The notes under the pieces were generated by a model, which was not told the origin of the DNA, made no database searches, and was given only the letters and a program-made list of their open reading frames with translations. From an uncultured Chitinophaga sp. (GTDB lineage Bacteria > Bacteroidota > Bacteroidia > Chitinophagales > Chitinophagaceae), in contig CAYPBW010000001.1 in NCBI GenBank assembly GCA_964409055.1, forward strand, positions 9,354 through 73,353: a stretch of 64,000 nucleotides of DNA, given 5' to 3'. Shown in pieces: positions 26,930 through 47,016 of this stretch (within the stretch, counting starts at the first letter, position 1; each line of letters starts with the position of its first letter). The position numbers were made by a program, and so were the translations under genes.

Positions 26930-27385
26930 TTACCAGTTGTTAGCCTGGTCAGGGTTTAGTCTTTCTGATACATCTACCGGTTGATTTTCTTCCCAGTTGG
27001 GATCAAATTTTACAAACCAGGATATCCATAGACTGCGGCTCAGCCGCATCAACCAGGGTTGAATAAGGATGAGTAAAACAGAATTTATACCCAACCAGTA
27101 AAAAAATCGGTTATCTGAAGTGGACATCCCGATTAAAACATACCAGGCAACAAGGGTGGATACGGTAAAAGCTACACCTAATGCATAGCTCACATAACCC
27201 GTACCATAATAAAACCCGACTTCTATTTCAGTAGGCTGGCCGCATACGGAACAATTCTTATGCATTTCCAGGTTTCGTTTGCCAATAGTTACAGGATGTT
27301 TAAACAATTTCCCTTCCCGGCAACGGGGGCAATGACAGGTAATAGCAGATGAAAGATAACCTCTGTGTTTCTTTTTGTCAGGCAT
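26930..27385 (-). CDS. DUF983-like membrane protein with N-terminal zinc ribbon
   Basis: 151 aa with CPRC...CSVC Cys pairs followed by 2-3 TM helices. Last gene of the P1 operon (2-nt gap to trx). Confidence 0.65.
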   Translation of the reverse strand: MPDKKKHRGYLSSAITCHCPRCREGKLFKHPVTIGKRNLEMHKNCSVCGQPTEIEVGFYYGTGYVSYALGVAFTVSTLVAWYVLIGMSTSDNRFFYWLGINSVLLILIQPWLMRLSRSLWISWFVKFDPNWEENQPVDVSERLNPDQANNW

Positions 27386-27387
27386 GT

Positions 27388-27714
27388 CTATGAGTTGATC
27401 GAATACTCTTCAATGATTTTTTCTAATTGTGAAGCCTGCAGCACACCGGATTTTCTCCATAATGTCTTTCCTTGTTGAAATATCATCAGAGTGGGTACGC
27501 TTTGAATCTGTAAGGTATTGGCTACAGATGGGCTTTTATCTACATCAATTTTGAGGATGCGCACTTTATCTCCCATCCTTGTATGCAGTTCTTCAAGTAC
27601 CGGTTTCATCAGTTTGCAGGGGCCACACCATTCAGCAAAAAAATCAACCAGCACTGGTTTGCTTCCGTTGATGATCTCCTCAAACGTTTCTCTCTTATTA
27701 CTTGTCGTTGTCAT
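27388..27714 (-). CDS. trxA: Thioredoxin
   Basis: 108 aa with the WCGPCK active site. Confidence 0.9.
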   Translation of the reverse strand: MTTTSNKRETFEEIINGSKPVLVDFFAEWCGPCKLMKPVLEELHTRMGDKVRILKIDVDKSPSVANTLQIQSVPTLMIFQQGKTLWRKSGVLQASQLEKIIEEYSINS

Positions 27715-27907
27715 TTTTTCCTCTTTTAAACATACTGAATAACAAACCGCCCATCAATGCGCCATAAGCCGTGCTGTTATGCCACTTAGAAGTAATAGCA
27801 CAAGTACCGCTGCTGCAGCCAATCTGTTGCCAGTACAGGTACCCTCCGGCAGCGCCAATTATAATTCCAGCGATCAATAATTTGTTATTTAGAACCCAGC
27901 TCTTCAT
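27698..27907 (-). CDS. Small 2-TM membrane protein with GCSSGTC motif (DUF6132-like)
   Basis: The ATG at 27907 (MKSWVLNNKLLIAG...) is preferred to the TTG at 27913. 69 aa with two hydrophobic helices flanking QQIGCSSGTCAI. Overlaps both neighbours. Confidence 0.55.
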   Translation of the reverse strand: MKSWVLNNKLLIAGIIIGAAGGYLYWQQIGCSSGTCAITSKWHNSTAYGALMGGLLFSMFKRGKNDNDK

Positions 27908-28139
27908 AGTCAATATTTTCAGGTTTGTCAGAATTATTTCTCTTTACAGGTGTGTAGCAACTTCCTCCTGCACAACAAACGCCATCAGTAAACAACGAGA
28001 ACACCGTAAAAATGGCTCCCAGTATTATTCCTGATACTTCACCAGCACCAATTGAGGATGACAAAATTAAGATACCCAACGTTACCCGGATGAATTTAAG
28101 GGCTGTCCATCCGCTTTTTAACCTGTCTATAAGAGCCAT
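27885..28139 (-). CDS. Small membrane protein, YgaP-C-terminal/DUF2892-like, with CCAGGSC motif
   Basis: 84 aa with two TM helices then DGVCCAGGSCYTP. First gene downstream of box P1. Confidence 0.55.
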   Translation of the reverse strand: MALIDRLKSGWTALKFIRVTLGILILSSSIGAGEVSGIILGAIFTVFSLFTDGVCCAGGSCYTPVKRNNSDKPENIDYEELGSK

Positions 28140-28155
28140 TTTATTGATTTAAATA

Positions 28156-28200
28156 CAAATTTCAGGTGCAATAATGAAGGCTGTGGTGACATTTGTTACA
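28156..28200 (-). promoter_or_regulatory. P1: CRP-type box plus -7-like element (DUF2892-DUF6132-trx-DUF983 operon)
   Basis: The box GGTGACATTTGTTACA (28185-28200) is followed, 21 nt downstream on the minus strand, by GAAATTTG (28156-28163). The ATG is at 28139. Confidence 0.6.
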
Positions 28201-28204
28201 AATA

Positions 28205-28231
28205 AAAACGGCTGTTAAAAACAGCCGTTTT
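28205..28231 (-). terminator. Terminator after sqr (bidirectional type)
   Basis: aaaacggctgt-taaaa-acagccgtttt forms a perfect 11-bp stem with A/T runs. Confidence 0.65.
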
Positions 28232-28250: not shown

Positions 28251-29447
28251 CTACATTTTACCGGGTAATATCTTGTGCCAGTATAGCCACGGTAAAATTC
28301 TTCTTTTCAACTGGTACATCGTCCACCGTTCTTTACTTTGGTCAAAAGGAAAAGTTTCAGTGGGTTTATTGTTGTAATCAAATTCGCAAAGGACAAGCTT
28401 GCCGTATCCTGTTACAACCGGGCAGCTTGAATACCCGTTATAACTTCCGGTTAACGGCTTTCCTTCCATAAAAGCCAGCAGGTTCTTTACCAGTACAGGA
28501 GCTTCTTTACGAATAGCGGCTCCTGTTCTTGAAGTAGGTAAAGAAGAAGCATCTCCCAGTGAGAACACATTTGGATACTTCACATGCTGCAAAGTGAATT
28601 TGTCTACATCTACCCAACCAGCGGCATTAGCCAATGGGCTATTCTTTACAAAATCGGGTGCACTTTGCGGAGGAGTTACATGTATCATATCAAAACTCAC
28701 CCAATATTCTTTGTCTTTATTTTGCTCTCCAAAACCAACAAATTTTGCTTTTTTATTGGGGCCATCAATTTCAACCAGTTTAGTAAAGAAATTCATCTGT
28801 ACTTTATCCCTTTCAGCCACTTTCTTCAGGGTCTTTTCGTATTTCTCCACACCAAATAGCCTGGTGCCGCCGCTCCAGTATTGTATCTCTGTTTTATCAA
28901 ATATTCCATGCTTTTTAAAGTAATCAGCAGCCAGCCACATTATTTTATGCGGGGCACCACCACATTTTACAGGTGTGTTCGGATTGGTGAACAAAGCTTT
29001 ACCTCCTTTGAAATTTTTCAGGCATTCCCAGGTATAGGGTGCATAATCAACACTGTAGTTGGAACATACGCCATTCTTTCCTATGGTTTCTTTCAGGCCT
29101 TTGATATCACCCCAGTTCAGTTGAATACCTGGCGCTACAATCAGGTATTCATATGCAATAATCTCATTGTTGTCTAAGGTTACCGTATTGGCTTCTGGTT
29201 GAAAGCTTGCTACTTTCTGTTTTATCCATTTTACTGATTTGGGCATTACATCAGCTTCATCACGAATGGTATTTTTCATATTGAAAACACCGGCACCAAC
29301 CAATGTCCATGCAGGCTGATAATAGTGTTTGTCAGAAGGCTCAATAATGGCAATGTCAAGATTCTTGTTTTTACGTAATAACTGAGAAGCAGTGGAGATA
29401 CCGGCATTACCTCCGCCAACGATTACAATTTGATGTTTGATTTGCAT
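28251..29447 (-). CDS. sqr: Sulfide:quinone oxidoreductase, type II (SQRDL-like)
   Basis: ATG at 29447 (MQIKHQIVIVGGGNAGIS, FAD fold). PVKCGGAPHKIM and SLGDASSLPTSRTGAA blocks are characteristic of type II SQR. Confidence 0.85.
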   Translation of the reverse strand: MQIKHQIVIVGGGNAGISTASQLLRKNKNLDIAIIEPSDKHYYQPAWTLVGAGVFNMKNTIRDEADVMPKSVKWIKQKVASFQPEANTVTLDNNEIIAYEYLIVAPGIQLNWGDIKGLKETIGKNGVCSNYSVDYAPYTWECLKNFKGGKALFTNPNTPVKCGGAPHKIMWLAADYFKKHGIFDKTEIQYWSGGTRLFGVEKYEKTLKKVAERDKVQMNFFTKLVEIDGPNKKAKFVGFGEQNKDKEYWVSFDMIHVTPPQSAPDFVKNSPLANAAGWVDVDKFTLQHVKYPNVFSLGDASSLPTSRTGAAIRKEAPVLVKNLLAFMEGKPLTGSYNGYSSCPVVTGYGKLVLCEFDYNNKPTETFPFDQSKERWTMYQLKRRILPWLYWHKILPGKM

Positions 29448-29465: not shown

Positions 29466-29511
29466 CTAAAGTAGTACGGGGGTGCAGCCGGAGGTAGTGA
29501 CAATTGTCACA
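29466..29511 (-). promoter_or_regulatory. P2: CRP-type box plus -7-like element (sqr)
   Basis: The box AGTGACAATTGTCACA (29496-29511) has an inner 14-mer that is a perfect palindrome. TACTTTAG (29466-29473, minus strand) lies after a 22-nt spacer. Confidence 0.6.
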
Positions 29512-29554
29512 CCTTCGGCATTTAGAACGATAATCATATAATGATCCTTATTCG

Positions 29555-29570
29555 CCTGACTACAGTCAGC
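29555..29570. promoter_or_regulatory. Auxiliary CRP-type half-degenerate box in the sqr / PDO1 divergent region
   Basis: CCTGACTACAGTCAGC. Its core TGACTACAGTCA is identical to the core of box P9, and its centre is 22 bp from the P4 box centre. No -7-like element is in register. Confidence 0.45.
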
Positions 29571-29576: not shown

Positions 29577-29621
29577 TGTGACTTTTGTCATTTTGACCGG
29601 CACTATCCGCTGAGAAATTTG
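29577..29621 (+). promoter_or_regulatory. P4: CRP-type box plus -7-like element (PDO-rhodanese 1)
   Basis: The box TGTGACTTTTGTCATT (29577-29592) is followed 21 nt later by GAAATTTG (29614-29621). The ATG comes only at 29765, giving an unusually long leader. Confidence 0.55.
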
Positions 29622-29764: not shown

Positions 29765-31189
29765 ATGAAAGTAGAACAAATTTATACCGGTTGCCTGGCA
29801 GAAGCAGCCTATTATATTGAGAGCAACGGGGAAGCTGCCATTATTGATCCTTTAAGGGAAACAAAGCCATATATTGATAAGGCGGAGCGAAATGGCGCAA
29901 AGATCAAATACATTCTTGAAACACATTTTCACGCAGATTTTGTTAGCGGTCACATTGACCTGGCTAAAAAAACAGGGGCAACAATTGTTTTCGGTCCTAC
30001 CGCTGCGCCGGCATACGATGTAAAGGTGGCCAGGGATGGCGAAGTACTTCAGTTAGGAGATGTCAAGATTAAAGTGTTGCATACACCGGGCCATACCATG
30101 GAATCCACCACTTATTTGCTGATAGATGAGAAAGGAAAGGATTATGCGATATTCACCGGCGATACATTATTTATCGGTGATGTGGGCCGCCCGGACTTAG
30201 TACAAAAAGTGAAGGCGGAGATCACTCCGCAGATTCTGGCCGGGTATCTATATAATTCACTCAGGAACCAGATCATGCCATTGGCTGATGATGTAATTGT
30301 ATATCCGGGACATGGGGCCGGCAGTGCCTGTGGTAAAAATATGAGTAAAGAGACCACTGATACGTTGGGCCATCAGAAGAAAGTCAATTATGCCCTTAGG
30401 GCTGATATGACAAAAGAAGAGTTCATTAAAGAAGTGACGGAAGGTTTGGTTGAGCCCCCACAGTATTTCCCTTACAATGTATTAATGAACCTGAAAGGGG
30501 GAATTGAAAGCATTGATGATATTATTGCAAGGGGTAAACGACCTCTTAGTGTCAAAGAGTTTCAGACCGTTTGGGAAAGTATGGAAGCTCTTGTATTGGA
30601 TACCCGGACCAAGGAAGCCTTTGTGGAAGAACATATTCCCGGATCAATATTCATTGGCATTGATGACAACTTCGCTCCCTGGTCAGGCACTTTGATAATG
30701 GATCTGAAGCAACCTATATTATTCCTTGCGGATGAAGGAAGGGAAGAGGAGGTAGTGGTTCGTTTGTCAAGAGTAGGATACGATAATGCTGTTGGTTTTC
30801 TACAGGGTGGTATTAAAGCCTGGAAAGAAGCAGGCTTTGAAACCGATTCCATAAAAGAAATAAGTGCTAATGATTTTGCCAGCCTCTACCAGATGGATTC
30901 TGAACATATAAACCTGCTGGATGCGAGACGTAAAAGTGAATTTGATTCTGAGCACCTGGTGGGTGCTGAAAACTTTCCCCTTGATTTCATTAACCAGAAC
31001 ATGTCGCAGTTAAGCAGGGATAAAAAGTACTTTATCCATTGTGCCGGCGGATATCGTTCTGTAATTATGGGTTCAATTTTAAAAGCAAGAGGCTTTGATA
31101 AATTGGTCAACATTCAGGGCGGCTATAAATCCTTAAGCCAGACAGGTCTTAAGAAGACACATTATGTAGAGCCCACTACCATGCTCTGA
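29765..31189 (+). CDS. Persulfide dioxygenase (MBL fold) fused to two rhodanese-like domains (CstB-like), copy 1
   Basis: 474 aa with ETHFHADFVSGH, HTPGHT and GDVGRPDL (MBL/PDO metal site), and a C-terminal rhodanese with active loop HCAGGYRS. Confidence 0.85.
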   Translation: MKVEQIYTGCLAEAAYYIESNGEAAIIDPLRETKPYIDKAERNGAKIKYILETHFHADFVSGHIDLAKKTGATIVFGPTAAPAYDVKVARDGEVLQLGDVKIKVLHTPGHTMESTTYLLIDEKGKDYAIFTGDTLFIGDVGRPDLVQKVKAEITPQILAGYLYNSLRNQIMPLADDVIVYPGHGAGSACGKNMSKETTDTLGHQKKVNYALRADMTKEEFIKEVTEGLVEPPQYFPYNVLMNLKGGIESIDDIIARGKRPLSVKEFQTVWESMEALVLDTRTKEAFVEEHIPGSIFIGIDDNFAPWSGTLIMDLKQPILFLADEGREEEVVVRLSRVGYDNAVGFLQGGIKAWKEAGFETDSIKEISANDFASLYQMDSEHINLLDARRKSEFDSEHLVGAENFPLDFINQNMSQLSRDKKYFIHCAGGYRSVIMGSILKARGFDKLVNIQGGYKSLSQTGLKKTHYVEPTTML

Positions 31190-31236: not shown

Positions 31237-31281
31237 TGTGATATTCGTCACGCATCACCACATCTGAGTTGGTTATTTTTG
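31237..31281 (+). promoter_or_regulatory. P5: CRP-type box plus perfect -7 element (thioredoxin 2)
   Basis: The box TGTGATATTCGTCACG (31237-31252) is followed 21 nt later by TATTTTTG (31274-31281, exact TAnnTTTG). The ATG is at 31297. Confidence 0.65.
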
Positions 31282-31296: not shown

Positions 31297-31671
31297 ATGG
31301 CAACAATAAAAATGACCACACAGGATTTTAAGAATAAGGTGTTTAACTACGAAACTGAGAAAGACTGGAAATACCAGGGACAACTTCCGGCTATTATTGA
31401 CTTTTATGCAGACTGGTGCGGTCCCTGCAAGATGGTGGCTCCAATATTAGAGGAACTTTCAAAGGAGTATGAGGGCAGGCTGGTTATTTATAAAGTGGAT
31501 ACAGATGTGGAGCAGGAACTGGCTGCCGTATTTGGTATTCAAAGTATTCCTACACTGCTTTTTATCGATTCGGAAGGTGAGCCTATGATGCAGCCGGGTG
31601 CATTGCCCAAACATATTTTCAAAAAGATAATTGATGAAAAATTATTAGCTCCTGTGAAAACAGAAGAGTAA
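31297..31671 (+). CDS. Thioredoxin (124 aa, N-terminally extended)
   Basis: ATG at 31297 (MATIKMTTQDF...) and the WCGPCK active site. The upstream part of the 160-aa ORF covers the terminator and box, so it is non-coding. Confidence 0.85.
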   Translation: MATIKMTTQDFKNKVFNYETEKDWKYQGQLPAIIDFYADWCGPCKMVAPILEELSKEYEGRLVIYKVDTDVEQELAAVFGIQSIPTLLFIDSEGEPMMQPGALPKHIFKKIIDEKLLAPVKTEE

Positions 31672-31746: not shown

Positions 31747-32298
31747 TTACTTATTCAGTATTTCCACAAAATCCTTTGTATCATAGTCAAGCCCGCCTGT
31801 ATGTTCATAAATGATTTCACCTTTTTCATCAAAGATAAATGTGGTAGGTATGCCTTCCACATTGAATAACTGGGGTAAGTTACCTGTCGGATAGTAAACA
31901 GGAAGTTTCATTTTGTTATTCGCCGCATAAATTTTTGCTTTTACAAAATTGTCATCAAGGGAAAGCATCACAAATTCAACCTTTGCTTTGTCTGTTTTTA
32001 ATGCGAGACTTTCTATGGAAGGAATCTCTGCCCTGCAGGGAGGACACCAGGTGGCCCAAAGATTTACAAAGACCTTTTTTCCTTTAAACTGAGATAAATC
32101 AAATGACTGATTATCTGTATTGATCATTTGTAAAGATGGAAGTGCTGATGCAACGGCAGGTGCAGTTGGTTGAGTTGTTGTTGCCGGCTGGTTAGAAACA
32201 ACGGTTTCTGTTTTTTCTGCAGCAGGTTTTTCGGCCGTTGAATTACTACAGCTAATTAATACGGCGATCATTACAACTGATAAAAAGAAATATTTCAT
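31747..32298 (-). CDS. TlpA/ResA-like thiol-disulfide oxidoreductase lipoprotein
   Basis: ATG at 32298 gives MKYFFLSVVMIAVLISC (lipobox). WATWCPPCRAE is the active site. Confidence 0.8.
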   Translation of the reverse strand: MKYFFLSVVMIAVLISCSNSTAEKPAAEKTETVVSNQPATTTQPTAPAVASALPSLQMINTDNQSFDLSQFKGKKVFVNLWATWCPPCRAEIPSIESLALKTDKAKVEFVMLSLDDNFVKAKIYAANNKMKLPVYYPTGNLPQLFNVEGIPTTFIFDEKGEIIYEHTGGLDYDTKDFVEILNK

Positions 32299-32345: not shown

Positions 32346-32390
32346 GGTGATAAATATCACCAATTTCGTCAAACACAGCCTTCAAATTTG
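32346..32390. promoter_or_regulatory. P6: shared CRP-type box between the divergent tlpA-like and methyltransferase genes
   Basis: The box GGTGATAAATATCACC (32346-32361) has perfect 6-bp arms. Toward the + gene, CAAATTTG (32383-32390) follows after 21 nt. Toward tlpA there is only a weak CATATTG. The box centre is 53-55 nt from both ATGs. Confidence 0.6.
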
Positions 32391-32406: not shown

Positions 32407-33000
32407 ATGCAGCAATTCTGGGATCAACGATACGCAAAGAACGAAACAGTATATGGCTATGAGCCGAATAAGTTTTTCAAGCTATTTATTGACCTGCATA
32501 AGCCGGGCTCCATACTGTTGCCAGCAGAAGGTGAAGGCCGCAATGCTGTGTATGCTGCGTCAAAGGGCTGGCAGGTGGATGCTTTTGACTTCAGTGAGGT
32601 AGCCCGTGAAAAGGCACTTGATTTTGCAAGTGCAGAAAATGTTCAGGTAAACTATGATTTAAAAAATATTACAGCCTTTAAAGCGGAAAAGCTGTACGAT
32701 GCTGTCGGCCTGATTTATATTCACCTGCCGGATGAGCAGAGAAAAAGGTTTCATCAGGAAATATATAATTCAATCAAACCAGGCGGCTTTCTGGTATTGG
32801 AAGCATTTGCCAAAGAACAAGCACAGTTTAAAAGCGGCGGACCGAGAGATACGGCACTTTTGTATGATGCTCCATCACTTTGCAGTGATTTCCCTTTTCT
32901 ACACCTGATGAGTTGTGAGCAAAAAGAAATTATTCTCAACGAAGGAGATTACCATAAAGGAAAAGCAGCCGTACTTCGAATAATTGGCCAGCGGTTATAA
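32407..33000 (+). CDS. Class I SAM-dependent methyltransferase (TehB/TPMT-like)
   Basis: ATG at 32407 (MQQFWDQRYAKNE...), 197 aa, with the LLPAEGEGRNAVY SAM-binding loop. Confidence 0.75.
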   Translation: MQQFWDQRYAKNETVYGYEPNKFFKLFIDLHKPGSILLPAEGEGRNAVYAASKGWQVDAFDFSEVAREKALDFASAENVQVNYDLKNITAFKAEKLYDAVGLIYIHLPDEQRKRFHQEIYNSIKPGGFLVLEAFAKEQAQFKSGGPRDTALLYDAPSLCSDFPFLHLMSCEQKEIILNEGDYHKGKAAVLRIIGQRL

Positions 33001-33018: not shown

Positions 33019-33591
33019 CTATTTCATTTCTGTAAAAATGATATGCCATACGCCTCTTAAGTCACCATCCTTGTAATTAAAAGCAGCATCATCTGGATAT
33101 TTTTTCTGGATCATATCCCATGTATCCGGTTTTATCTGTGTTTCTTTTTCCCCGTGACAGTTCAGGCACATTGCCTGAATAAATATGGGTTTGAAGTAGT
33201 GATGGTTTCCCTTTGAATCTTGCTTTACAATTGCTGTTAGTTGTTTATTTTCTTTTTTTTGTTCCAGGTAGGTCTTAATCACATCTTTTTCCATCTCATC
33301 CGGGGTATTGACGGAATTACGGATTTTATCAGAAGTTCTTTTAATTTGGATTCCTGCACCCGTATAAGTTTTTGTAAGATCTAATGCCGATGTATTACAA
33401 AAATCAACAGCGCCTGGAATGCCTCTTTCGCTGATTGCTTTCAGCAATGTATTTCTGAGTGTGTCAAATGTTTGTACTGTCAGTGAATCTCCTTTGTTTT
33501 TCCAATCTATAAATTCTTTTTTATCTTTTGATTCTTTGCAGGAAACCAAAAAAGTCAATAAGCCGGTAATGAGAAATGAATATTTCAACAT
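33019..33591 (-). CDS. DUF3365 (Tll0287-like) c-type heme lipoprotein
   Basis: 190 aa with lipobox LVSC and a single CLNCHG heme-attachment motif. Confidence 0.65.
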   Translation of the reverse strand: MLKYSFLITGLLTFLVSCKESKDKKEFIDWKNKGDSLTVQTFDTLRNTLLKAISERGIPGAVDFCNTSALDLTKTYTGAGIQIKRTSDKIRNSVNTPDEMEKDVIKTYLEQKKENKQLTAIVKQDSKGNHHYFKPIFIQAMCLNCHGEKETQIKPDTWDMIQKKYPDDAAFNYKDGDLRGVWHIIFTEMK

Positions 33592-36201: not shown

Positions 36202-36246
36202 CTAAATTATTGGATTGCTAATAGCCGTGTTGTGATTTTCATCACA
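36202..36246 (-). promoter_or_regulatory. P7: perfect CRP-type box plus -7-like element (Kelch-MFS-DUF3365 operon)
   Basis: The box TGTGATTTTCATCACA (36231-36246) is followed 21 nt downstream by TAATTTAG (36202-36209, minus strand). The ATG is at 36180. Confidence 0.65.
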
Positions 36247-37436: not shown

Positions 37437-37481
37437 CAAAATTGATTTTAATTGAAAGTGTAACGAGTGATTTATGTCACA
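37437..37481 (-). promoter_or_regulatory. P8: CRP-type box plus -7-like element (YeeE/YedE pair)
   Basis: The box AGTGATTTATGTCACA (37466-37481) is followed 21 nt downstream by CAATTTTG (37437-37444, minus strand). The ATG is at 37413. Confidence 0.6.
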
Positions 37482-40231: not shown

Positions 40232-40276
40232 TAAAAATGCTTTCTTTAAGCAACCCGGTTCGTGACTACAGTCACA
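40232..40276 (-). promoter_or_regulatory. P9: CRP-type box plus weak -7-like element (soxB-like / tsdA-like operon)
   Basis: The box CGTGACTACAGTCACA (40261-40276) is followed 21 nt downstream by CATTTTTA (40232-40239, minus strand). Confidence 0.55.
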
Positions 40277-40295: not shown

Positions 40296-41714
40296 TTAAA
40301 ACTGGTAATTTAAAACAATGTTCCAAAGACTCATATCTGCTTTATTGATAACGTATTTGTCGTTTCCGTAACTACTGCCTGTTTTTCCTTTATAAACATA
40401 CAGCAGTTGCGTTTCCAGACCCTTTAATATACCGCCAAATTTATAGCGGGCATCAATATTCAACTGGTTATATGAGGGCATTCCATATTTATTGAACCTG
40501 AAATCCGTTACATCCGGCAACTCATAATGCCCGAAGGCTATTGAAGTTGTGATCCTGGCCTTCGGTATTTTGTAATTGACTTTGCCCACCACAGCATGTG
40601 CATCTCCCAGCCCTTCATTTCTTTCTCTCGGTAAAAAGGTGAAGAAAGGATCCCGGCCCCATTCTCTCGGCATAAGGTATCTTCCTTGAGCAGTAATACG
40701 GTTATAGTTCAGGCTTGTTTCCCATTTTTCATACTTCCATCCCAGCCTGGTTCCGAAAGTTATTGCCCTGGCACCCTTTTCAACATAGGCTTTTGAAGGA
40801 TCATTATTGCCACCATCCTTTACTGCATCCTGCCTTATAAACTGTGCCGCTGCAAAAAGCTTTGAATTTTTGGATATCGGATATTCATAATCTGCCTGCA
40901 GCATAGCACTGTTAAAGATATTTTCTGTGTATTGGTTCCAAAACTGGAGTTTTAACTGGTCATTTATTTGGGTAGTAATGCCGGCCAGAAAAATTCCTTT
41001 GCTTTCCAGGTTTCCGGCATATTCAGATTTTATACCCTCATCATTTACCCCCACAGGATATACCCCGATAGACTCTGCTACGTTAAACCACTTAACTGTA
41101 CTTCTGGGCGAAATGCCGTATAAATATCCAAACTGCAACCTGAGTTTTTTTATAGAGTTCATTTCTGTCCAGATACCTTCCACTTCTGTCGGCCTCATCC
41201 GGCCATCCTGCAGGTTAATAAAAGGAGTATTGATCAGTTGTTTACCAAGGGTAATGTGATTGTTACTAAAGTGATACTTGATATATAATTCTTCCAAGCG
41301 GTCAATATCTTTTTTATTAGCAGGGTCTTCAATATCGAACAACCCCGTTTCGTACCTGTTCATTTGTTTGGTTTTGGAATCAGGCACGGAAAGGTCGGAG
41401 GAGCCAATATTATAAACAAAAAATCCGCTCACCCCCACCTGGAAATTCTTAAACCTGCCTGTTTCAAATTTTATTCCGCCTCCCACTGCGTTGGCATAAT
41501 AATCTGTCAGTCCCTCTTTATTATCTGTTGCCATAAAATAATACCGGAAATGGCCACTGAATGTGCCCTTTCTGAATGCGGATAAAATCGAAGTGGAATC
41601 AGCTTCGCTCTCTTTTTCCTTCCATAAACCCGGTTTCTCATTTATCTCCTGGTGCTGTGTATATCCTGGAAGTGAAATCACTATTGCAGTGATGAGTATG
41701 AGAATCTTCTTCAT
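40296..41714 (-). CDS. Outer-membrane beta-barrel porin (OprD-like)
   Basis: 472 aa with a signal peptide, alternating beta-strand pattern throughout, and a C-terminal ...VLNYQF aromatic terminus. Confidence 0.65.
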   Translation of the reverse strand: MKKILILITAIVISLPGYTQHQEINEKPGLWKEKESEADSTSILSAFRKGTFSGHFRYYFMATDNKEGLTDYYANAVGGGIKFETGRFKNFQVGVSGFFVYNIGSSDLSVPDSKTKQMNRYETGLFDIEDPANKKDIDRLEELYIKYHFSNNHITLGKQLINTPFINLQDGRMRPTEVEGIWTEMNSIKKLRLQFGYLYGISPRSTVKWFNVAESIGVYPVGVNDEGIKSEYAGNLESKGIFLAGITTQINDQLKLQFWNQYTENIFNSAMLQADYEYPISKNSKLFAAAQFIRQDAVKDGGNNDPSKAYVEKGARAITFGTRLGWKYEKWETSLNYNRITAQGRYLMPREWGRDPFFTFLPRERNEGLGDAHAVVGKVNYKIPKARITTSIAFGHYELPDVTDFRFNKYGMPSYNQLNIDARYKFGGILKGLETQLLYVYKGKTGSSYGNDKYVINKADMSLWNIVLNYQF

Positions 41715-41767: not shown

Positions 41768-42199
41768 TCAGAAACCGGCTTTTATATAACTCCAGCCTTG
41801 TTCTTGTTTTCGTACGATTTCGCCGATTCCCATTTTTACAAAAGTGGCTTCTGCTATGATGGTCTCTTTAGGAATTTTTCGCTCCATCATGGTGTTTTCG
41901 CAGGCAATGAACGTAATACCCATTTGTTTGAAATGGCTGATCTTTTCCTGTTGCGTTGTTTTGCCTTTTGTCAGAAAATCAAGACCCGGGCCATGCGCCA
42001 CAACTTCTATTACCACACTGTCGCCCCATCCGGCTTTAAGGTGCTTCAGGTTATTCATCAACCCTTTCCATACCAATGTATCGTTACTGCTTAACTGCAT
42101 TACAATACGATGCTGTGAAACCGTTCCACTTGTGTTTTGAGCCCATCCCTGCAATGCAAATAAGGATATAATGGCAGCCAGTCTGATTCTTTTGTGCAT
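41768..42199 (-). CDS. Exported DsrE/DsrF-like family protein
   Basis: ATG at 42199 gives MHKRIRLAAIISLFALQGWAQ (Sec signal). RIVMQLSS...IEVVAHGPGLDFL...FIACENTM matches the DsrE-like fold and Cys position. Confidence 0.65.
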   Translation of the reverse strand: MHKRIRLAAIISLFALQGWAQNTSGTVSQHRIVMQLSSNDTLVWKGLMNNLKHLKAGWGDSVVIEVVAHGPGLDFLTKGKTTQQEKISHFKQMGITFIACENTMMERKIPKETIIAEATFVKMGIGEIVRKQEQGWSYIKAGF

Positions 42200-42216: not shown

Positions 42217-42639
42217 TTATTGTTCCTTTGCTCCGGTCCAATTAGTATAGCCACCATTCAGGTCATACAGTTTTGTAAAACCCATTTCTTTCATGATGCT
42301 CATGGCGTCTATACTTCTTTTTCCACTGCGGCAATAGACCAGGTATGTTTTGTTCTTGTCGAGGCTTGAAATCTGTGCTTTGAACTCTTCTTTTTTTAGC
42401 ACATCAATTTGTGTAGCATGGGGTATATGGCCAGCTTTATATTCATCTGTTGTCCTTACATCCAGCACAACGGTGTTCTTTTTCTTGCTGAGCCGTTCAA
42501 ATTTTTTCTGACTTATTGTTTTGCCTGCCGGATTATCCTGGGCTTGTGCGCAAACAGAACCACATAAGCCAGCCAGCATTAAGGCTGCAGCAATAAATAA
42601 CCAACTGATGCTTTTTATTTTTTTTAGTATAGTACTCAT
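42217..42639 (-). CDS. Exported single-domain rhodanese
   Basis: 140 aa with a signal peptide (…CGSVCAQAQD) and active loop CRSGKRS. Confidence 0.85.
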   Translation of the reverse strand: MSTILKKIKSISWLFIAAALMLAGLCGSVCAQAQDNPAGKTISQKKFERLSKKKNTVVLDVRTTDEYKAGHIPHATQIDVLKKEEFKAQISSLDKNKTYLVYCRSGKRSIDAMSIMKEMGFTKLYDLNGGYTNWTGAKEQ

Positions 42640-42947
42640 GCTATTTTAGTTATCAGACTATTCCAGGGGCCTCCGTTATAGGCCTCAATACCGGCAGATT
42701 TCAGTATGCCTTTTGCCATTCCGCTACGGGCACCGCTTCTGCATACAGTGATTACAGGTTTATTCAGCTTTTTAAGTTCAGCTATTTTAGTACGTATGCT
42801 GTCAAGCGGATAGTTTTTTGATCCGGGAATATGCCCTGATTTGTACTCACCAGCAGACCGAACATCTATTATAACAGCCCCCTTACCGATAAGCTCTTTG
42901 TAGTTGACAGAAGTTCCTCCAAATAGTTTCTTTAAAAATCCAATCAT
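42636..42947 (-). CDS. Single-domain rhodanese (cytoplasmic)
   Basis: 103 aa with active loop CRSGARS. 4-nt overlap with the next gene. Confidence 0.85.
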   Translation of the reverse strand: MIGFLKKLFGGTSVNYKELIGKGAVIIDVRSAGEYKSGHIPGSKNYPLDSIRTKIAELKKLNKPVITVCRSGARSGMAKGILKSAGIEAYNGGPWNSLITKIA

Positions 42948-42958: not shown

Positions 42959-43240
42959 TTAATTTAATAAGAATTGCATATCTCCTAAACCACCGCCGTT
43001 ATATACTTCAGTAATACCATTTTGTTTCAGAATGCTTACTGCCATTCCGCTCCTGTTGCCGCTGCGGCAATAGAGCACTATAGGCGTTTTTATTTCTTTG
43101 AGTTCCTTTATCTTGTACATGACCTCTTCCAGGGGAATATTTTTGGCTCCGGGTACATGTTCCATGTCAAATTCCCACGGACTTCTTACATCGACAATTA
43201 CTGTCTCTGATTTTTTTATTATCTCTTTTAATGACTGCAT
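42959..43240 (-). CDS. Single-domain rhodanese (cytoplasmic)
   Basis: 93 aa with active loop CRSGNRS. Confidence 0.85.
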   Translation of the reverse strand: MQSLKEIIKKSETVIVDVRSPWEFDMEHVPGAKNIPLEEVMYKIKELKEIKTPIVLYCRSGNRSGMAVSILKQNGITEVYNGGGLGDMQFLLN

Positions 43241-43290: not shown

Positions 43291-43941
43291 TTATAATGTT
43301 TTTTTGGCTAAGTACCAGTCCACCTTTTCTACCGTGTCGTCAGCTAGCCTTGCTTCGTAATCAGCCAACGTTTTAGGTGGGGGTACGATTACTTTGTCAC
43401 CCGGTTCCCAGTTAAGAGGGATTGCCACTTTGTTAGCATCGCTTGTTTGCAATGCAAGCAGCACTCTTTTTATTTCATGCATATTCCTGCCAACGTTCAG
43501 CGGGTAATACATGATAAGGCGAATCGTTCCCTTAGGGTCTATAAAAAATACGGCTCTTACGGCAGCAGTTTCGCTTTCATTGGGTTGCAGCATGCCGTAT
43601 AACTTGGCTACTTTCATGTCCAGGTCGGCTATGATGGGAAATTGGAAATACACACCGGTGTTTTTTTTCACATTATCAACCCAGGCAATATGTGAATGAA
43701 CACTGTCGATACTTAACCCTATCAGTTTAGTATTATGCTTGTCAAAGAAGCTTTCCTGTTCCATTGCAAAGCCGCTCATTTCTGTTGTACATACGGGTGT
43801 GAAATCGGCAGGGTGTGAGAACAGGATCACCCAACTATCTTTTGCATAGTCTGAAAACTTGATCACTCCTTTGGTAGTAACAGCCGAGAAGTCAGGAGCT
43901 TTATCACCTATCCTTGGCATTGTTATAGTATTTGGTTCCAT
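43291..43941 (-). CDS. 1-Cys peroxiredoxin (Prx6 type)
   Basis: 216 aa with the FTPVCTTE peroxidatic Cys motif and no resolving-Cys motif. Confidence 0.9.
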   Translation of the reverse strand: MEPNTITMPRIGDKAPDFSAVTTKGVIKFSDYAKDSWVILFSHPADFTPVCTTEMSGFAMEQESFFDKHNTKLIGLSIDSVHSHIAWVDNVKKNTGVYFQFPIIADLDMKVAKLYGMLQPNESETAAVRAVFFIDPKGTIRLIMYYPLNVGRNMHEIKRVLLALQTSDANKVAIPLNWEPGDKVIVPPPKTLADYEARLADDTVEKVDWYLAKKTL

Positions 43942-44023: not shown

Positions 44024-45442
44024 TTATAATAGTGTCGAAGGACACACATAGTCGCTTATTTTGAACTTACCACTTTCTTTCAGTGCCTTGAAACCGCTTT
44101 TTACATCAACCAGGTTGTCAAATCCCCTGGCACGGAGAATTGAGTTGAATATCATAGAGCGATAACCACCGGCACAATGAACATAATAGGTCTTTTTCTT
44201 ATCGATCTGGGCCATGCTGTCGTTGATAAAGTCAAGTGGTGCATTTTCTGCTTCTACCAGGTGTTCACTCAGGTATTCACTTTTTTTACGGACGTCAAGA
44301 ATGTTTATCTTTTCTTTCTGTGATATGTCCGCAAGTTCATCTGCAGTTACAGATTTAATCATATCAACTTCCTTTCCGGCATTTTTCCAGGCATTGAAAC
44401 CACCTTTCAGGTAACCAATGGTAAAATCATAACCGACCCTGGCTAATCTTGTTACTACTTCTTCTTCACGACCCTCGTCAGTTACAAGTAATATTTCCTG
44501 TTTGATATCGGGAATCATAGCGCCAACCCATGGGGCAAACTGGCCATCAATACCAATATTTATTGAGTTAGGAACAAAGCCCAGCGCAAATGTTTGCGGA
44601 TCTCTTGTATCCAGTACTAATGCACCGGTTTCATTGGCTGCAGTTTCAAAAGCATCCGGACTTAAGGCATGCTGACCTCTTTCGAGCACTTTATCAATAC
44701 TGTCATACCCTTGTATATTCATCATCACATTCAGCGGGAAATAAGCAGGAGGAGCAACAAGCCCTGTTGTAACTTCTTTGATGAATTCTTCTTTGGTCAT
44801 ATTTGCCCGGAGTGCATAATTTGTTTTTTTCTGATTGCCCAGTGTATCAGTTGTTTCTTTACTCATGTTTTTGCCACAGGCACTGCCAGCACCGTGGGCA
44901 GGATATACGGTAATATCATCAGCCAGTGGCATGATCTTATTTCGGAGAGAGTCAAACAAATAACCGGCTAATTTATCCTGTGTAAGGTCGGCTGCCACTT
45001 TCTGTGCAAGGTCAGGACGACCTACATCACCGATAAACAATGTATCACCGGAGAACAAACCAACATCCTTACCGTTTTCATCTTTCAGCAGGTAGCAGGT
45101 ACTTTCCATCGTATGACCGGGAGTATGCAGTACTTTCAATGTTACATTGCCTACTTTAAATTCCTGGCCATCTTCAGCAATCAGTGCATCAAAGGCAGGT
45201 TTAGCATTTGGACCGTACACAATGGGTGCGCCGGTTTTTTTGCTAAGGTCAAGGTGACCGCTGACAAAGTCGGCATGAAAGTGTGTTTCAAAAACGTACT
45301 TGATCTTTGCATTGTTACGTTCAGCCTTTTGGATATAAGGCTCTACCTCACGCAGCGGATCAATTACAACAGCTTCACCATTACTCTCGATGTAATAAGC
45401 ACCTTGTGCCAAGCAACCGGTATAAATTTGTTCTACTTTCAT
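44024..45442 (-). CDS. Persulfide dioxygenase (MBL fold) fused to two rhodanese-like domains (CstB-like), copy 2
   Basis: 472 aa, colinear with copy 1 and roughly 65-70% identical by eye, with the same ETHFHADFVSGH and HCAGGYRS motifs. Confidence 0.85.
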   Translation of the reverse strand: MKVEQIYTGCLAQGAYYIESNGEAVVIDPLREVEPYIQKAERNNAKIKYVFETHFHADFVSGHLDLSKKTGAPIVYGPNAKPAFDALIAEDGQEFKVGNVTLKVLHTPGHTMESTCYLLKDENGKDVGLFSGDTLFIGDVGRPDLAQKVAADLTQDKLAGYLFDSLRNKIMPLADDITVYPAHGAGSACGKNMSKETTDTLGNQKKTNYALRANMTKEEFIKEVTTGLVAPPAYFPLNVMMNIQGYDSIDKVLERGQHALSPDAFETAANETGALVLDTRDPQTFALGFVPNSINIGIDGQFAPWVGAMIPDIKQEILLVTDEGREEEVVTRLARVGYDFTIGYLKGGFNAWKNAGKEVDMIKSVTADELADISQKEKINILDVRKKSEYLSEHLVEAENAPLDFINDSMAQIDKKKTYYVHCAGGYRSMIFNSILRARGFDNLVDVKSGFKALKESGKFKISDYVCPSTLL

Positions 45443-45474
45443 TTGCTATATTTTTTTTGTTTTTTATTGAAGAT

Positions 45475-45519
45475 CAAATTTCGGATCTGGAAACATGCTG
45501 AACAGTGACATCAATCACA
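45475..45519 (-). promoter_or_regulatory. P10: CRP-type box plus -7-like element (PDO-rhodanese 2, probably with prx)
   Basis: The box AGTGACATCAATCACA (45504-45519) is followed 21 nt downstream by GAAATTTG (45475-45482, minus strand). The ATG is at 45442. Confidence 0.6.
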
Positions 45520-45520
45520 A

Positions 45521-46330
45521 TCAATGCCCACCGCCACCGGGGAAGAATAACTCTTTAACAATTATATAAATACCCATTACGAGTACAAACCAACCGAACC
45601 CTTTTTTCAGGCCATCAGCAGATACTTTTTTACTGAGTGCATTACCAATGAAAATCCCAACAATGGCAAGACCGGTAACGGACAGTAAAAGTGTCCAGTC
45701 CATGTTTTGTTTGCCAAGGTCACCGGTGAACCCGATTAGTGATTTTGCAGCTATGATTAATAGAGAAGTTCCCACTGCCTGTTTCATTGGCAGCTTACTC
45801 AGTAACACCAATGCCGGGATAATTAGGAAACCGCCTCCGGCACCCACTAACCCTGTGAGCATACCTACCACAGCGCCTTCCAGTAGTATCATTGGATAAT
45901 TGAATTTTTGCTCGCCAGTTTCTTCCGATTTCCCTTTTTTGTTCCTGATCATAGATACAGAAGCAAATACCATCAAAATGGCAAACAGTATCATCATCAG
46001 CAATGATTTAGTTACAACAAAATCACCGATATGAAATACTTCTTTGGGAATGGCGGGTACAAGGAAGGCTCTTGTTGCAAACACTGCTATAATCGAAGGG
46101 ATACCGAAGATGAGAGCAGTTTTCAGGTTCACTTCACCGCTTTTATATTTCGGGTAAGTGCCTACCAGGCTGGTAGCCCCTACAATAAAAAGTGAATAAG
46201 CGGTGGCAAGTACGGGGTTTACCCCAAAAAGATAAACGAGAACAGGTACAGTAAGAATAGAACCGCCTCCGCCAATTAAGCCAAGAGAAACACCGATCAG
46301 AAGAGAAGCTATGTATCCGATTATTTCCAT
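45521..46330 (-). CDS. TauE/SafE family sulfite/anion exporter
   Basis: ATG at 46330 (MEIIGYIASLLIGVSLGLIGGGGSILTVP), 269 aa, about 8 TM segments with an internal repeat. Confidence 0.85.
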   Translation of the reverse strand: MEIIGYIASLLIGVSLGLIGGGGSILTVPVLVYLFGVNPVLATAYSLFIVGATSLVGTYPKYKSGEVNLKTALIFGIPSIIAVFATRAFLVPAIPKEVFHIGDFVVTKSLLMMILFAILMVFASVSMIRNKKGKSEETGEQKFNYPMILLEGAVVGMLTGLVGAGGGFLIIPALVLLSKLPMKQAVGTSLLIIAAKSLIGFTGDLGKQNMDWTLLLSVTGLAIVGIFIGNALSKKVSADGLKKGFGWFVLVMGIYIIVKELFFPGGGGH

Positions 46331-46346
46331 GCAAAATTTATTTATG

Positions 46347-46391
46347 CAAAGGTGAACGGAATACAATTGCTGTACTGTGACTCAAATCACA
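46347..46391 (-). promoter_or_regulatory. P11: perfect CRP-type box plus -7-like element (tauE)
   Basis: The box TGTGACTCAAATCACA (46376-46391) is followed 21 nt downstream by CACCTTTG (46347-46354, minus strand). The box starts 8 nt after the regulator stop codon. Confidence 0.65.
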
Positions 46392-46398
46392 GCACCCA

Positions 46399-47016
46399 CT
46401 ACAATAATTCGATCATATTTCTGTGCAGCTTGAGCAGGTTGCGCTGCTCCATTTTTTTTAAGAGTCTTGAAATTACTTCTCTCGAACTATTCAGGTCATC
46501 GGCTATCTGCTGGTGAGAAGTTTCAATTATCTTTTTCCCTGTAGTATCGGCATGCCTTTTCAGGTAGAATTCAAGTCTCTCATCCATATTTCGAAAGGCC
46601 ACATTGTCAATCACAGCCAACAATTCATCAAAACGGTTTCTGTAGGTCATAATGACAAACTGATACCATGTTTTGTATTTGTTCATCATATCATCCATCA
46701 ACTGGATGGGTATCATGAGGACTTCTGTATCTTCTTCAGCTTTTGCCATAATCTCACTTTGCTGTGACTGTATGGCACAGATCATTGTAACAGCACAAGC
46801 CTGGCCCGGTCCTAAATAATACATCAGAAATTCTCCGCCATCAGGATTTTCCCGGTAGATCTTTACCCTGCCTTCCAATACCAAAGCCGTGGATTTAATA
46901 TACTGGCCGGTACGCATAATGATTTCTCCCGCAAGAAAGGTTCTTTGCACCGCCTCTTTTTCAATCAGCTCAATTAAGCCGGGCTCAAACTGCGGAAATA
47001 GTTCTTTCCAATTCAT
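46399..47016 (-). CDS. Crp/Fnr family transcriptional regulator (205 aa)
   Basis: N-terminal beta-roll effector domain, a long dimerisation helix, and the C-terminal HTH ETSHQQIADDLNSSREVISRLLKKME with R-E-x-x-S-R. Its only two Cys lie in GPGQACAVTMICAI. Confidence 0.9.
   Translation of the reverse strand: MNWKELFPQFEPGLIELIEKEAVQRTFLAGEIIMRTGQYIKSTALVLEGRVKIYRENPDGGEFLMYYLGPGQACAVTMICAIQSQQSEIMAKAEEDTEVLMIPIQLMDDMMNKYKTWYQFVIMTYRNRFDELLAVIDNVAFRNMDERLEFYLKRHADTTGKKIIETSHQQIADDLNSSREVISRLLKKMEQRNLLKLHRNMIELL

Follow-up and report, generated by a model that had tools for sequence, protein, structure and literature searches.

The 64,000-nucleotide stretch analysed here (the window) derives from an uncultured Chitinophaga sp. 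of the phylum Bacteroidota (GenBank assembly GCA_964409055.1, contig CAYPBW010000001.1, positions 9,354 to 73,353 of the forward strand). Positions 26930-47016 of the window hold a block of sulfur metabolism genes that, judged from its sequence, appears to be a single regulon of one Crp/Fnr-family regulator, with a predicted operator before essentially every transcription unit. We consider it probable that this one Crp-type protein, likely an activator responsive to sulfane sulfur, drives two connected sulfur oxidation arms.

Proteins were assigned to families using Pfam and NCBIfam profile searches and sequence comparisons with the PDB. A first-pass annotation had counted roughly 27 genes in the block; 25 open reading frames (ORFs) are callable, and the families that it listed are confirmed. 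Pfam matches at or above the curated thresholds were obtained for two thioredoxins, DUF6132, Pyr_redox_2, two fusions of a metallo-beta-lactamase (MBL) domain with two rhodanese domains, Redoxin/TlpA, TPMT/TehB, Tll0287/DUF3365, MFS, two Sulf_transp proteins, a SoxA/TsdA cytochrome, Metallophos with the 5'-nucleotidase C-terminal domain, OprD, DsrE, three further rhodaneses, a 1-Cys peroxiredoxin, TauE and Crp/Fnr. Two of the earlier labels are weaker: the protein encoded at 26930-27385 scores 18.6 bits against DUF983 (cutoff 22.6), and the Kelch-like protein reaches only 17.6 bits by sequence (cutoff 50), its fold being borne out by structure prediction (see below). The enzymes of the block all belong to known kinds.

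Operator and promoter

A palindromic motif is common to the intergenic regions of the block. The pattern GTGA-N6-TCAC has 10 exact matches in 64 kb (0.58 expected) and the refined pattern GTGAY-N4-RTCAC has 8 (0.12 expected). All eight refined sites are intergenic and inside the block, with none elsewhere in the window. They precede the genes for sulfide:quinone oxidoreductase (SQR), thioredoxin 2, the divergent TlpA-like protein and methyltransferase, the Kelch operon, the YedE halves, the SoxB-like/TsdA-like operon, the second persulfide dioxygenase (PDO2) and TauE, and their centres lie 52-71 bp upstream of the start codons. Two more sites with one mismatch each are found upstream of the operon of the 84-aa protein and facing PDO1. 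A common predicted operator is thus present at about ten promoters, those of accessory operons included, which upholds the co-regulation anticipated by the first-pass annotation.

The spacing between operator and promoter was analysed for 128 sites from the window and 80 related loci. In Bacteroidota the -7 box has the consensus TAnnTTTG, ending in TTTG (10.1101/172254). The G of TTTG falls exactly 30 nt after the site in 63 of the 128 cases and 31 nt after it in 10; the background is 0-5 cases at any one position. This box was used because sigma-70 is the wrong model for Bacteroidota; a sigma-70 promoter scan was uninformative (57 matches, 49 expected). The window promoters have no -33 TTG between operator and -7 box. 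This geometry puts the operator centre near -42, about 37 nt before the -7 box ends, and by the paradigm of E. coli CRP and FNR the regulator would be a class-II-type activator. In other genomes the same unit of site and promoter precedes TauE (23 instances), YedE (11), PDO (10), thioredoxin (4), the SoxB-like gene (3) and others, and equivalent sites lie 60-90 bp upstream of the SoxB-like gene in L001, L008, L011, L012, L029, L038 and L039 (L numbers designate related loci).

The PDO1 leader appears to be long, with the operator and -7 box (29578) some 130-180 nt upstream of the ATG. Also in the region 29511-29764 is an imperfect palindrome, CTGACTACAGTCAG (29556), similar to the operator but with the two outer G/C positions swapped; it may represent either a weak additional site or an RNA element. 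An Rfam search returned only the tRNA.

The Crp/Fnr-family regulator

The regulator has the domains cNMP_binding (51.8 bits), HTH_Crp_2 (36.7 bits) and Crp (22.7 bits), and its gene begins 10 bp past the murF stop codon. It is the sole regulator of the block, in which Pfam found no CsoR-like ORF. No operator precedes the regulator gene itself, which suggests that it is expressed constitutively and that the protein is controlled after translation. The recognition helix, SREVISR, has the R-E-x-x-x-R arrangement with which CRP reads GTGA. Where the helix reads SREV(I/V)SR (21 loci, 406 kb), 70 operator sites are found. The eight loci with SRVV(I/V)SR contain no GTGAY-N4-RTCAC in 130 kb and instead have GTAAY-N4-RTTAC upstream of operon starts (0.46 versus 0.07 per 10 kb). 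The exchange of E for V in the helix together with that of GTGA for GTAA in the DNA is an apparent compensatory change in protein and operator, and such covariation links the operator to the regulator of the block, not to a global one. The subgroup with the E to V exchange (SRVVISR; L015, L016, L017, L018, L020, L022, L027 and L060) has regulators of 37-45% identity, and its sites before operon starts read GTAAC-N4-GTTAC.

A C-x5-C pair (C74, C80) is invariant in 30 of 30 cluster-linked regulators, down to 37% identity. Aligned by hand with CRP, the pair flanks the place of the residues that bind the cAMP phosphate. An FNR-type [4Fe-4S] cysteine cluster is absent, C74 and C80 being the only cysteines and none standing in an N-terminal cluster. 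The regulator may be switched by sulfane sulfur on the C-x5-C pair in the effector pocket. C-x5-C is also present, as MDMCLLSASCIM, in the closest solved homolog, the structural-genomics Crp/Fnr protein 3dv8 (73 bits). It thus marks a broader Crp/Fnr subfamily that is uncharacterised but for which this structure is in hand. Among the matches listed, homologs of the regulator are from Chitinophagaceae metagenome-assembled genomes (MAGs) with at least 84% identity.

Dedicated sensors of reactive sulfur species (RSS) are described in the CsoR, ArsR and Fis families only, use Cys pairs, and typically have regulons with SQR, PDO, sulfurtransferases, TauE and YedE/YeeE (PMC13467558, a 2026 review). 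The fold of the block regulator places it outside the CsoR, ArsR and Fis/sigma-54 activator families of CstR, SqrR/BigR and FisR. No prior literature was found on a Crp/Fnr regulator of sqr/pdo or on sulfane sulfur sensing by such a protein. The nearest precedent is a "CRP-like motif" near psrABC and cydAB in Chlorobaculum tepidum, which has another motif and geometry and no conserved cognate regulator.

Cytoplasmic enzymes

The SQR of the block is of type II. It aligns with human SQOR (6oi5) over residues 8-399, whereas flavocytochrome c sulfide dehydrogenases (FCSD) score at most 79 bits and type I and V SQRs at most 52 bits in the PDB comparison. Pyr_redox_2 is located at residues 9-127, and the motifs IVGGGNAG, PVKCGGAPHK and YSSCPVVTGY are present; we take the cysteines of the latter two to be the counterparts of C201 and C379 of human SQOR. 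The two PDO paralogs (472 and 474 aa) combine an MBL domain with two rhodanese domains and align over their full length with 3tp9 and with S. aureus CstB, 3r2u (214-234 bits). They have the motifs ETHFHADFVSG and HCAGGYRS, the latter of which holds the active Cys of the C-terminal rhodanese. Three single-domain rhodaneses (93, 103 and 140 aa) have CRSGxRS loops, and one of them has a signal peptide.

Exported proteins

The exported branch proposed in the first-pass annotation is real. The TsdA-like protein matches A. vinosum TsdA, has the Pfam domains SoxA-TsdA_cyt-c and Cytochrom_C, and contains two CXXCH motifs. Its Cys-ligand motif for haem 1, GDCFERSLNG (context C-x-E-R-S-x-N-G), is intact; RVGDCFERSLNG aligns with RIGDCFERSLNG of 4wqc. 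At least two CXXCH motifs occur in 68 of 69 orthologs and the Cys-ligand motif in 66 of 69. The gene starts 10 bp past the SoxB-like gene in the window, and in 54 of 80 loci the two directly adjoin on the same strand, the TsdA-like gene standing upstream in 28 and downstream in 26. The protein is predicted to interconvert thiosulfate and tetrathionate.

The SoxB-like protein has Metallophos and 5_nucleotid_C domains (Pfam). TIGR04486 is its best model, ahead of the nucleotidase models (at most 116 bits) by more than 140 bits, and its best PDB match is SoxB 2wdc (74.7 bits; nucleotidases about 60). The metal-ligand residues D55/H57, D106, N138 and H270 are invariant. The Tat (twin-arginine translocation) motif is SRRDFLK, and an RR motif is found in 73 of 78 orthologs. 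An AlphaFold model was unusable (predicted local distance difference test, pLDDT, 47.5), the alignment being shallow (85-96% identity). Among the matches listed, homologs are again from Chitinophagaceae MAGs with at least 84% identity.

The DsrE-like protein has 30 orthologs with a signal peptide and an invariant Cys in the motif A-C-E-N-T. In three genomes (L009, L010 and L013) the exported rhodanese and the DsrE-like protein are one ORF of 247-258 aa, in the order signal peptide, CRSGxRS rhodanese, DsrE-like domain (DsrE-like parts at L009 9571-9912, L010 881-1222 and L013 5854-6243). This fusion supports a joint periplasmic function. For the split YeeE/YedE pair an import role is suggested because the characterised family members TsuA and SoxT (for SoxT, PMC11582611) are importers.

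The first-pass annotation had found no SoxXAYZ, Dsr, Apr/Sat or Hdr-like genes, and this holds for SoxXAYZ, Dsr, Apr and Hdr in Pfam searches of the block and the flanking ORFs of at least 150 aa; the SoxA/TsdA cytochrome domain is the only Sox-named family there. The 20 ORFs of at least 150 aa in the rest of the window match housekeeping families only, with no Sox, Dsr, Apr/Sat or Hdr family among them. No SoxY-type carrier (an ORF ending in GGCGG) is present in the window or in the 80 related loci (1.27 Mb).

Conservation in related genomes

One genome per GTDB species was scanned with the SoxB-like protein as anchor, and the best 80 loci (59-88% identity) were retained. All are from Bacteroidota (Chitinophagaceae, Cyclobacteriaceae, Sphingobacteriales, Flavobacteriales and Cytophagales), and cultured carriers include Flavihumibacter stibioxidans, Daejeonella sp. 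JGW-45 and Longitalea luteola. The window proteins were mapped onto these loci by tblastn, and presence was counted for those 38 loci that span 19 kb or more (Table 1).

Table 1. Presence of the window proteins in 38 related loci
Protein	Loci
TsdA-like	34/38
YedE halves	32/38
TauE	29/38
DsrE-like	25/38
PDO	24/38
Porin	22/38
Crp	19/38
Rhodaneses	11-15/38
SQR	13/38
DUF983/thioredoxin/DUF6132	8/38
MFS	7/38
Kelch	2/38
Methyltransferase	2/38
TlpA	1/38
DUF3365	0/38

The conserved core consists of the SoxB-like protein, TsdA, the YedE halves, TauE, PDO, the DsrE-like protein and the porin, and is thiosulfate-centred. Kelch, MFS, DUF3365, TlpA and the methyltransferase are an accessory, variable periphery. 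The co-occurrence suggested as a check by the first-pass annotation is thus found for the core, but for SQR in 13 loci only and for Kelch, methyltransferase, TlpA and DUF3365 in 0-2. The whole arrangement downstream of GldJ-MurF-Crp is kept in L001, L002, L006, L008, L011, L012, L059 and L063.

In L081 (JGI 3300048578, a 3-Mb contig), a murF-Crp-TauE-PDO island occupies the same chromosomal position (2753-15333). TsdA, the SoxB-like protein and the porin are missing from it; in their place are a cytoplasmic DsrE, a DsrC/TusE-like protein and a second flavoprotein of the Pyr_redox_2 family, whose match to FCSD is faint. The Kelch-like gene is retained, and recurs inside the island in L008 as well. 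The chromosomal site of the island is fixed and its gene content modular.

Proposed model and alternatives

The observations behind the model are the gene families and the way they are co-located and conserved, the conserved cysteines, and an operator that has a fixed spacing and covaries with the regulator; the metabolic steps are proposed by analogy with family functions. It is as follows. Sulfane sulfur, as the presumed inducer, would turn the regulator into an activator rather than a repressor of both arms. In the cytoplasm, type II SQR would oxidize H2S to persulfide or polysulfide, the two CstB-type PDO-rhodaneses with the small rhodaneses would convert persulfide to sulfite and thiosulfate, and TauE would export the resulting anion. 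Peroxiredoxin, thioredoxin and TlpA would serve in thiol repair. Thiosulfate, either external and entering through the porin or exported from the cytoplasm, would be oxidized to tetrathionate by the membrane-anchored TsdA-like cytochrome, and the Tat-exported SoxB-like protein would cleave the terminal sulfonate as sulfate, as in Erythrobacter flavus. The leftover sulfane sulfur would be caught on the Cys residues of the exported rhodanese and the DsrE-like protein, as putative carriers, and re-imported by the split YeeE/YedE for oxidation by PDO. Between them, the two arms would oxidize sulfide or thiosulfate in steps as far as sulfate, with no SoxYZ, SoxCD, Dsr or Hdr involved.

A wider claim joins regulator and pathway, and is put forward tentatively, being less likely than not. 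According to it, the Crp/Fnr protein would be a fourth structural class of RSS sensor, after CsoR, ArsR and Fis. Sulfane sulfur bridging C-x5-C, which replaces the cAMP phosphate-binding cassette, would make it a class-II-type activator of about ten promoters. At the same time its regulon would be a SoxYZ-independent cycle in which the exported rhodanese/DsrE-like Cys relay returns sulfane sulfur from the TsdA-like and SoxB-like proteins through the split YeeE/YedE to PDO, for complete oxidation of sulfide or thiosulfate to sulfate without SoxCD, Dsr or Hdr.

Several points weigh against the proposed model. Only promoter geometry speaks for activation over repression. The occurrence of C-x5-C in 3dv8 means that the pair may be a feature of the wider subfamily unrelated to sulfur. 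The SoxB-like protein scores far below the SoxB equivalog cutoff, and its cleavage of a sulfur substrate is a prediction. The transport directions of TauE and YedE are taken from other family members. The likeness to the E. flavus pathway (see below) is one of gene set and description. The L081 island is without TsdA, the SoxB-like protein and the porin. No more than 13 of 38 loci have SQR within 10 kb of the core, so that the sulfide and thiosulfate arms are separable.

The first-pass annotation had favoured a model in which sulfide is oxidized by cytoplasmic SQR and CstB-like enzymes, thiosulfate and sulfite are exported through TauE and YeeE/YedE, and the TsdA-like, SoxB-like, exported rhodanese and DsrE-like proteins complete the oxidation in the periplasm. 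Taken as a one-way detoxification, it would involve neither sulfur import nor an energy role. All the families needed are present, the cst-like core is genuine, and the regulon includes thiol-repair genes of the kind usual in a stress response. This explanation is nonetheless unlikely. The conserved core is made up of TsdA, the SoxB-like protein, YedE and TauE rather than SQR, a dedicated porin suggests uptake of an external substrate, and SoxB-type hydrolysis of tetrathionate leaves sulfane sulfur that needs a cytoplasmic PDO (PMC7608252). A flow from the cytoplasm through YeeE/YedE to the periplasm is not the best-supported one, since the characterised YeeE members (TsuA, and SoxT in PMC11582611) import and the core is centred on thiosulfate, not sulfide.

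Rather less probable still is a mosaic assembled at a recombination hot spot between murF and tRNA-Ser, with independent operons (an RSS detoxification set, a thiosulfate set, an unrelated Kelch-MFS-DUF3365 set, and TlpA with the methyltransferase) that do not form one functional system. The modular gene content among relatives, exemplified by L081, the near absence of Kelch, methyltransferase, TlpA and DUF3365 from other loci and the tRNA gene at the block border would agree with a mosaic. However, the accessory operons carry the same operator at the same spacing (Kelch, 36232; TlpA/methyltransferase, 32347), the operator occurs nowhere else in the window, the Kelch-like gene recurs inside the island in L008 and L081, and there is no GC anomaly. 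A selenium/tellurium detoxification island, in which YedE, rhodanese/DsrE, thioredoxin and peroxiredoxin handle selenite or tellurite and the TPMT/TehB-like enzyme methylates, is very improbable. It is rejected because all of the matches that suggest it (NCBIfam YedE selenium transporter, rhodanese-related (seleno)protein, MduS, TehB and TPMT_Se_Te) are weak and below threshold, every selenium-linked one far below its cutoff. Moreover, SQR, TsdA, the SoxB-like protein, PDO and TauE represent specific sulfur chemistry, the methyltransferase is found in only 2 of 38 loci, and Pfam scans of the block and the flanking ORFs of at least 150 aa yielded no SelD or SelA. Two connected sulfur oxidation arms under one regulator remain the preferred reading.

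Comparison with known systems

The first-pass annotation had concluded that the block matches none of the textbook sulfur oxidation systems. This stands, but a match beyond the textbook pathways is the thiosulfate pathway established by proteomics, knock-outs and stoichiometry in Erythrobacter flavus 21-3 (Zhang et al. 2020, PMC7608252). There, TsdA makes tetrathionate, a stand-alone SoxB (NCBI name "bifunctional metallophosphatase/5'-nucleotidase") frees sulfate and leaves zero-valent sulfur, and the MBL-fold PDO-rhodaneses SdoA/B convert zero-valent sulfur to sulfite; the genes form one cluster, which thiosulfate induces, and no other Sox component is described in the pathway (PMC7608252). 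The same work pointed out tsdA and soxB pairs in Bacteroidetes, and did not address transporters, carriers or a regulator. The scheme has been reused in later metagenomic work. Like E. flavus, the block has a co-located TsdA, a stand-alone SoxB-like protein and PDO-rhodanese without SoxXAYZ, and both TsdA-family proteins are larger than A. vinosum TsdA. The TsdA-like/SoxB-like/PDO set therefore fits an E. flavus-type pathway by analogy, and the exported branch is not unprecedented. In contrast to E. flavus, the block is in another phylum, has no TsdB, adds a type II SQR, TauE, the split YeeE/YedE, the exported rhodanese and DsrE-like protein, the porin and thiol repair, and is under a Crp/Fnr-type regulator with a defined operator.

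The resemblance to the S. aureus cst system seen by the first-pass annotation also holds: type II SQR, CstB-type PDO-Rhd-Rhd with a C-terminal active Cys and TauE form a cst-like core under a regulator with a Cys pair. As it had stated, the regulator is of a different family; it is a Crp/Fnr protein and probably an activator, whereas CstR is a CsoR-family repressor. Unlike cst, the block has no CstA-type Rhd-TusA multidomain sulfurtransferase but only single-domain rhodaneses (no block ORF matched a TusA domain in Pfam). PDO is present as two paralogs, and the block also has a periplasmic branch and a porin of the outer membrane.

Hyphomicrobium denitrificans has TauE-type sulfite export. Its system is also similar in its periplasmic attack on thiosulfate, YeeE-like sulfane import, cytoplasmic oxidation to sulfite and Cys-containing regulator that responds to sulfane sulfur (PMC11582611, PMC10451225); for the block regulator such a response is predicted. 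The block differs in having TsdA-like, SoxB-like, DsrE-like and rhodanese proteins in place of SoxXA, SoxYZ and SoxB, O2-dependent PDO instead of sHdr, and a Crp/Fnr protein instead of an ArsR-type repressor. SQR and PDO with fused or free rhodaneses, giving sulfite and thiosulfate, are common in heterotrophs (PMC5702731, PMC9163753). Such operons usually have 2-4 genes and FisR-, CstR-, BigR- or SqrR-type regulators, whereas the block has about 25 genes in about ten transcription units and a periplasmic module.

The operator resembles the E. coli CRP/FNR class II arrangement in its TGTGA-N6-TCACA-type palindrome, in the correspondence of R-E-x-x-x-R with R180/E181/R185 of CRP, and in a site near -42 that replaces the upstream promoter element. 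It differs from the CRP case in its Bacteroidota sigma-A promoter (TAnnTTTG), and the regulator differs in that a Cys-bracketed segment replaces the cAMP phosphate-binding residues; compared with FNR, it has no four-Cys cluster.

Heterotrophic Bacteroidota abound in soils, freshwater and activated sludge, but what they do in sulfur cycling is usually read from isolated KEGG hits (sqr, pdo, "soxB", tsdA). These hits would belong to one co-regulated system with a predictable operator, by which the regulon can be mapped in related genomes. New are the integration of the modules in Bacteroidota and the periplasmic additions of rhodanese, DsrE-like protein and porin. The experimentally defined TsdA-SoxB pathway would thereby be extended to another phylum and gain candidates for its missing parts (porin, periplasmic Cys carriers, importer and exporter). 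The chief novelty is the Crp/Fnr-family regulator with its invariant Cys pair and well-defined, conserved operator; should it sense sulfane sulfur, it would represent a new RSS sensor family and provide an activator/operator pair for biosensors.

Gene organization and minor features

Table 2. Genes and predicted operators of the block (window coordinates)
Feature	Position	Strand	Evidence
Crp/Fnr-family regulator, 205 aa	46399..47016	-	Pfam cNMP_binding + HTH_Crp_2; best PDB match 3dv8
Operator GTGACTCAAATCAC, upstream of TauE	46377..46390	.	Equivalent site kept at TauE, 23 site+promoter instances across loci
TauE/SafE-family anion exporter (probable sulfite export, predicted)	45521..46330	-	Pfam TauE 162 bits
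Operator GTGACATCAATCAC, upstream of PDO2	45505..45518	.	Motif match
PDO2, CstB-type persulfide dioxygenase + two rhodanese domains	44024..45442	-	3tp9 234 bits, S. aureus CstB 3r2u 214 bits; Pfam
1-Cys peroxiredoxin	43291..43941	-	AhpC-TSA + 1-cysPrx_C; NCBIfam PRK13189 290 bits (cutoff 211)
Cytoplasmic single-domain rhodanese, CRSGNRS	42959..43240	-	Pfam Rhodanese 65 bits
Cytoplasmic single-domain rhodanese, CRSGARS	42636..42947	-	Pfam Rhodanese 58 bits
Exported rhodanese, signal peptide, CRSGKRS	42217..42639	-	Pfam 80 bits
Exported DsrE-like protein, MTH1491/ST0148 family	41768..42199	-	Pfam DsrE; PDB 1l1s 50 bits
OprD-family outer-membrane porin	40296..41714	-	Pfam OprD 59 bits
Operator GTGACTACAGTCAC, upstream of SoxB-like/TsdA-like operon	40262..40275	.	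Motif match; equivalents in relatives
Tat-exported SoxB-like metallophosphatase/5'-nucleotidase-fold hydrolase	38504..40198	-	TIGR04486 258 bits (equivalog cutoff 550)
TsdA-like dihaem cytochrome c, N-terminal membrane anchor	37489..38493	-	PDB 4wq7/4wqc 141-144 bits; Cys-ligand motif
Operator GTGATTTATGTCAC, upstream of YedE halves	37467..37480	.	Motif match; kept in relatives
YeeE/YedE-family half-transporter a	36850..37413	-	Pfam Sulf_transp 69 bits; weak TsuA match (NCBIfam)
YeeE/YedE-family half-transporter b (DUF6691)	36310..36843	-	Pfam Sulf_transp/DUF6691
Operator GTGATTTTCATCAC, upstream of Kelch-like operon	36232..36245	.	Motif match; equivalent in L008 at 14054
Exported Kelch-type six-bladed beta-propeller, accessory	34864..36180	-	AlphaFold2 (AF2) model + Foldseek
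MFS transporter, accessory	33608..34867	-	Pfam MFS_1 150 bits
Tll0287/DUF3365-like haem-c lipoprotein, CLNCH, accessory	33019..33591	-	Pfam 83 bits; PDB 5b82 50 bits
TPMT/TehB-like S-adenosylmethionine (SAM) methyltransferase, accessory	32407..33000	+	Pfam TPMT 36 bits, TehB 27.6 bits
Operator GTGATAAATATCAC, common to divergent TlpA-like + methyltransferase genes	32347..32360	.	Motif match
TlpA-like thiol:disulfide oxidoreductase lipoprotein, WCPPC, accessory	31747..32298	-	Pfam Redoxin 81 bits
Thioredoxin 2, WCGPC	31297..31671	+	Pfam 85 bits
Operator GTGATATTCGTCAC, upstream of thioredoxin 2	31238..31251	.	Motif match
PDO1, second CstB-type PDO-rhodanese-rhodanese	29765..31189	+	Pfam Lactamase_B + 2 Rhodanese
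Operator GTGACTTTTGTCAT, one mismatch, facing PDO1	29578..29591	.	-7 box at canonical spacing; long 5' leader
Operator GTGACAATTGTCAC, upstream of SQR	29497..29510	.	Motif match
Type II sulfide:quinone oxidoreductase	28251..29447	-	407 bits to human SQOR 6oi5
Operator GTGACATTTGTTAC, one mismatch, upstream of 84-aa gene operon	28186..28199	.	Motif match
84-aa membrane protein, GVCC(A/P)GG motif conserved	27885..28139	-	Ortholog alignment; no family
DUF6132 small membrane protein, GC-x(2,3)-G(T/S)-C conserved	27698..27913	-	Pfam DUF6132 34.8 bits; alignment
Thioredoxin 1, WCGPC	27388..27714	-	Pfam 101 bits
Zinc-ribbon (2x CxxC) membrane protein, DUF983-like	26930..27385	-	Pfam 18.6 bits, cutoff 22.6; alignment

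Housekeeping genes flank the block. To one side are murF (47027-48307), a GldJ-like gene and PorU/PorV, and to the other tRNA-Ser(GGA) (26803-26891, minus strand), tatD and gltX. A gap of 38 bp separates the tRNA gene from the nearest gene of the block, and no integrase, repeat or GC shift marks a mobile island beside it. GC content is uniform over the whole window and flat (0.40-0.42) in the block and flanks alike. A recent horizontal acquisition of the block is unlikely because of this flat GC content and the GldJ-MurF and TatD synteny kept in relatives.

The Kelch-like protein was modelled with AlphaFold (pLDDT 85.9), and Foldseek matched the model to Kelch six-bladed propellers (TM score 0.5-0.65). 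It has no sequence match in the PDB, and the fold matches are generic Kelch propellers from which no function can be assigned. Matches to plant epithiospecifier and thiocyanate-forming proteins are at the fold level only (13-14% identity). Among the matches listed, its homologs extend down to 53% identity and have no informative names. For the 84-aa Cys-motif protein there is no Pfam or NCBIfam match even at E<=10, and a suspected likeness to the YgaP/DUF2892 transmembrane domain was not confirmed by either database.

The DUF3365 lipoprotein (33019-33591) is a homolog of Tll0287 (5b82); it keeps CXXCH and has an upstream Cys (C65). In Tll0287, as in TsdA and SoxA, the haem is ligated by His and Cys. 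If this applies, the lipoprotein would be the second Cys-ligated haem protein of the regulon, possibly a redox partner or sensor.

Outside the block, the 796-aa ORF at 10275-12665 (plus strand) contains a Mur-ligase middle domain and a complete alanine racemase and is a fused cell-wall enzyme; the separate murF beside the island exists in addition to it. Two minus-strand ORFs have no Pfam match, one of 782 aa (13477-15825) and a lipoprotein-like one of 298 aa (24991-25887). A homolog of the latter adjoins TatD in L063 (tblastn), and the equivalent position in L081 is occupied by an unannotated ORF of 312 aa (a correspondence of position only).

GC-rich hairpins with T tracts are found at 43972-43991 (in the gap between PDO2 and the peroxiredoxin gene), 43260-43286 (after rhodanese 1), 36258-36283 (after YedE half-transporter b) and 28205-28231 (after SQR). 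These are likely to be partial terminators that subdivide the long minus-strand gene run.

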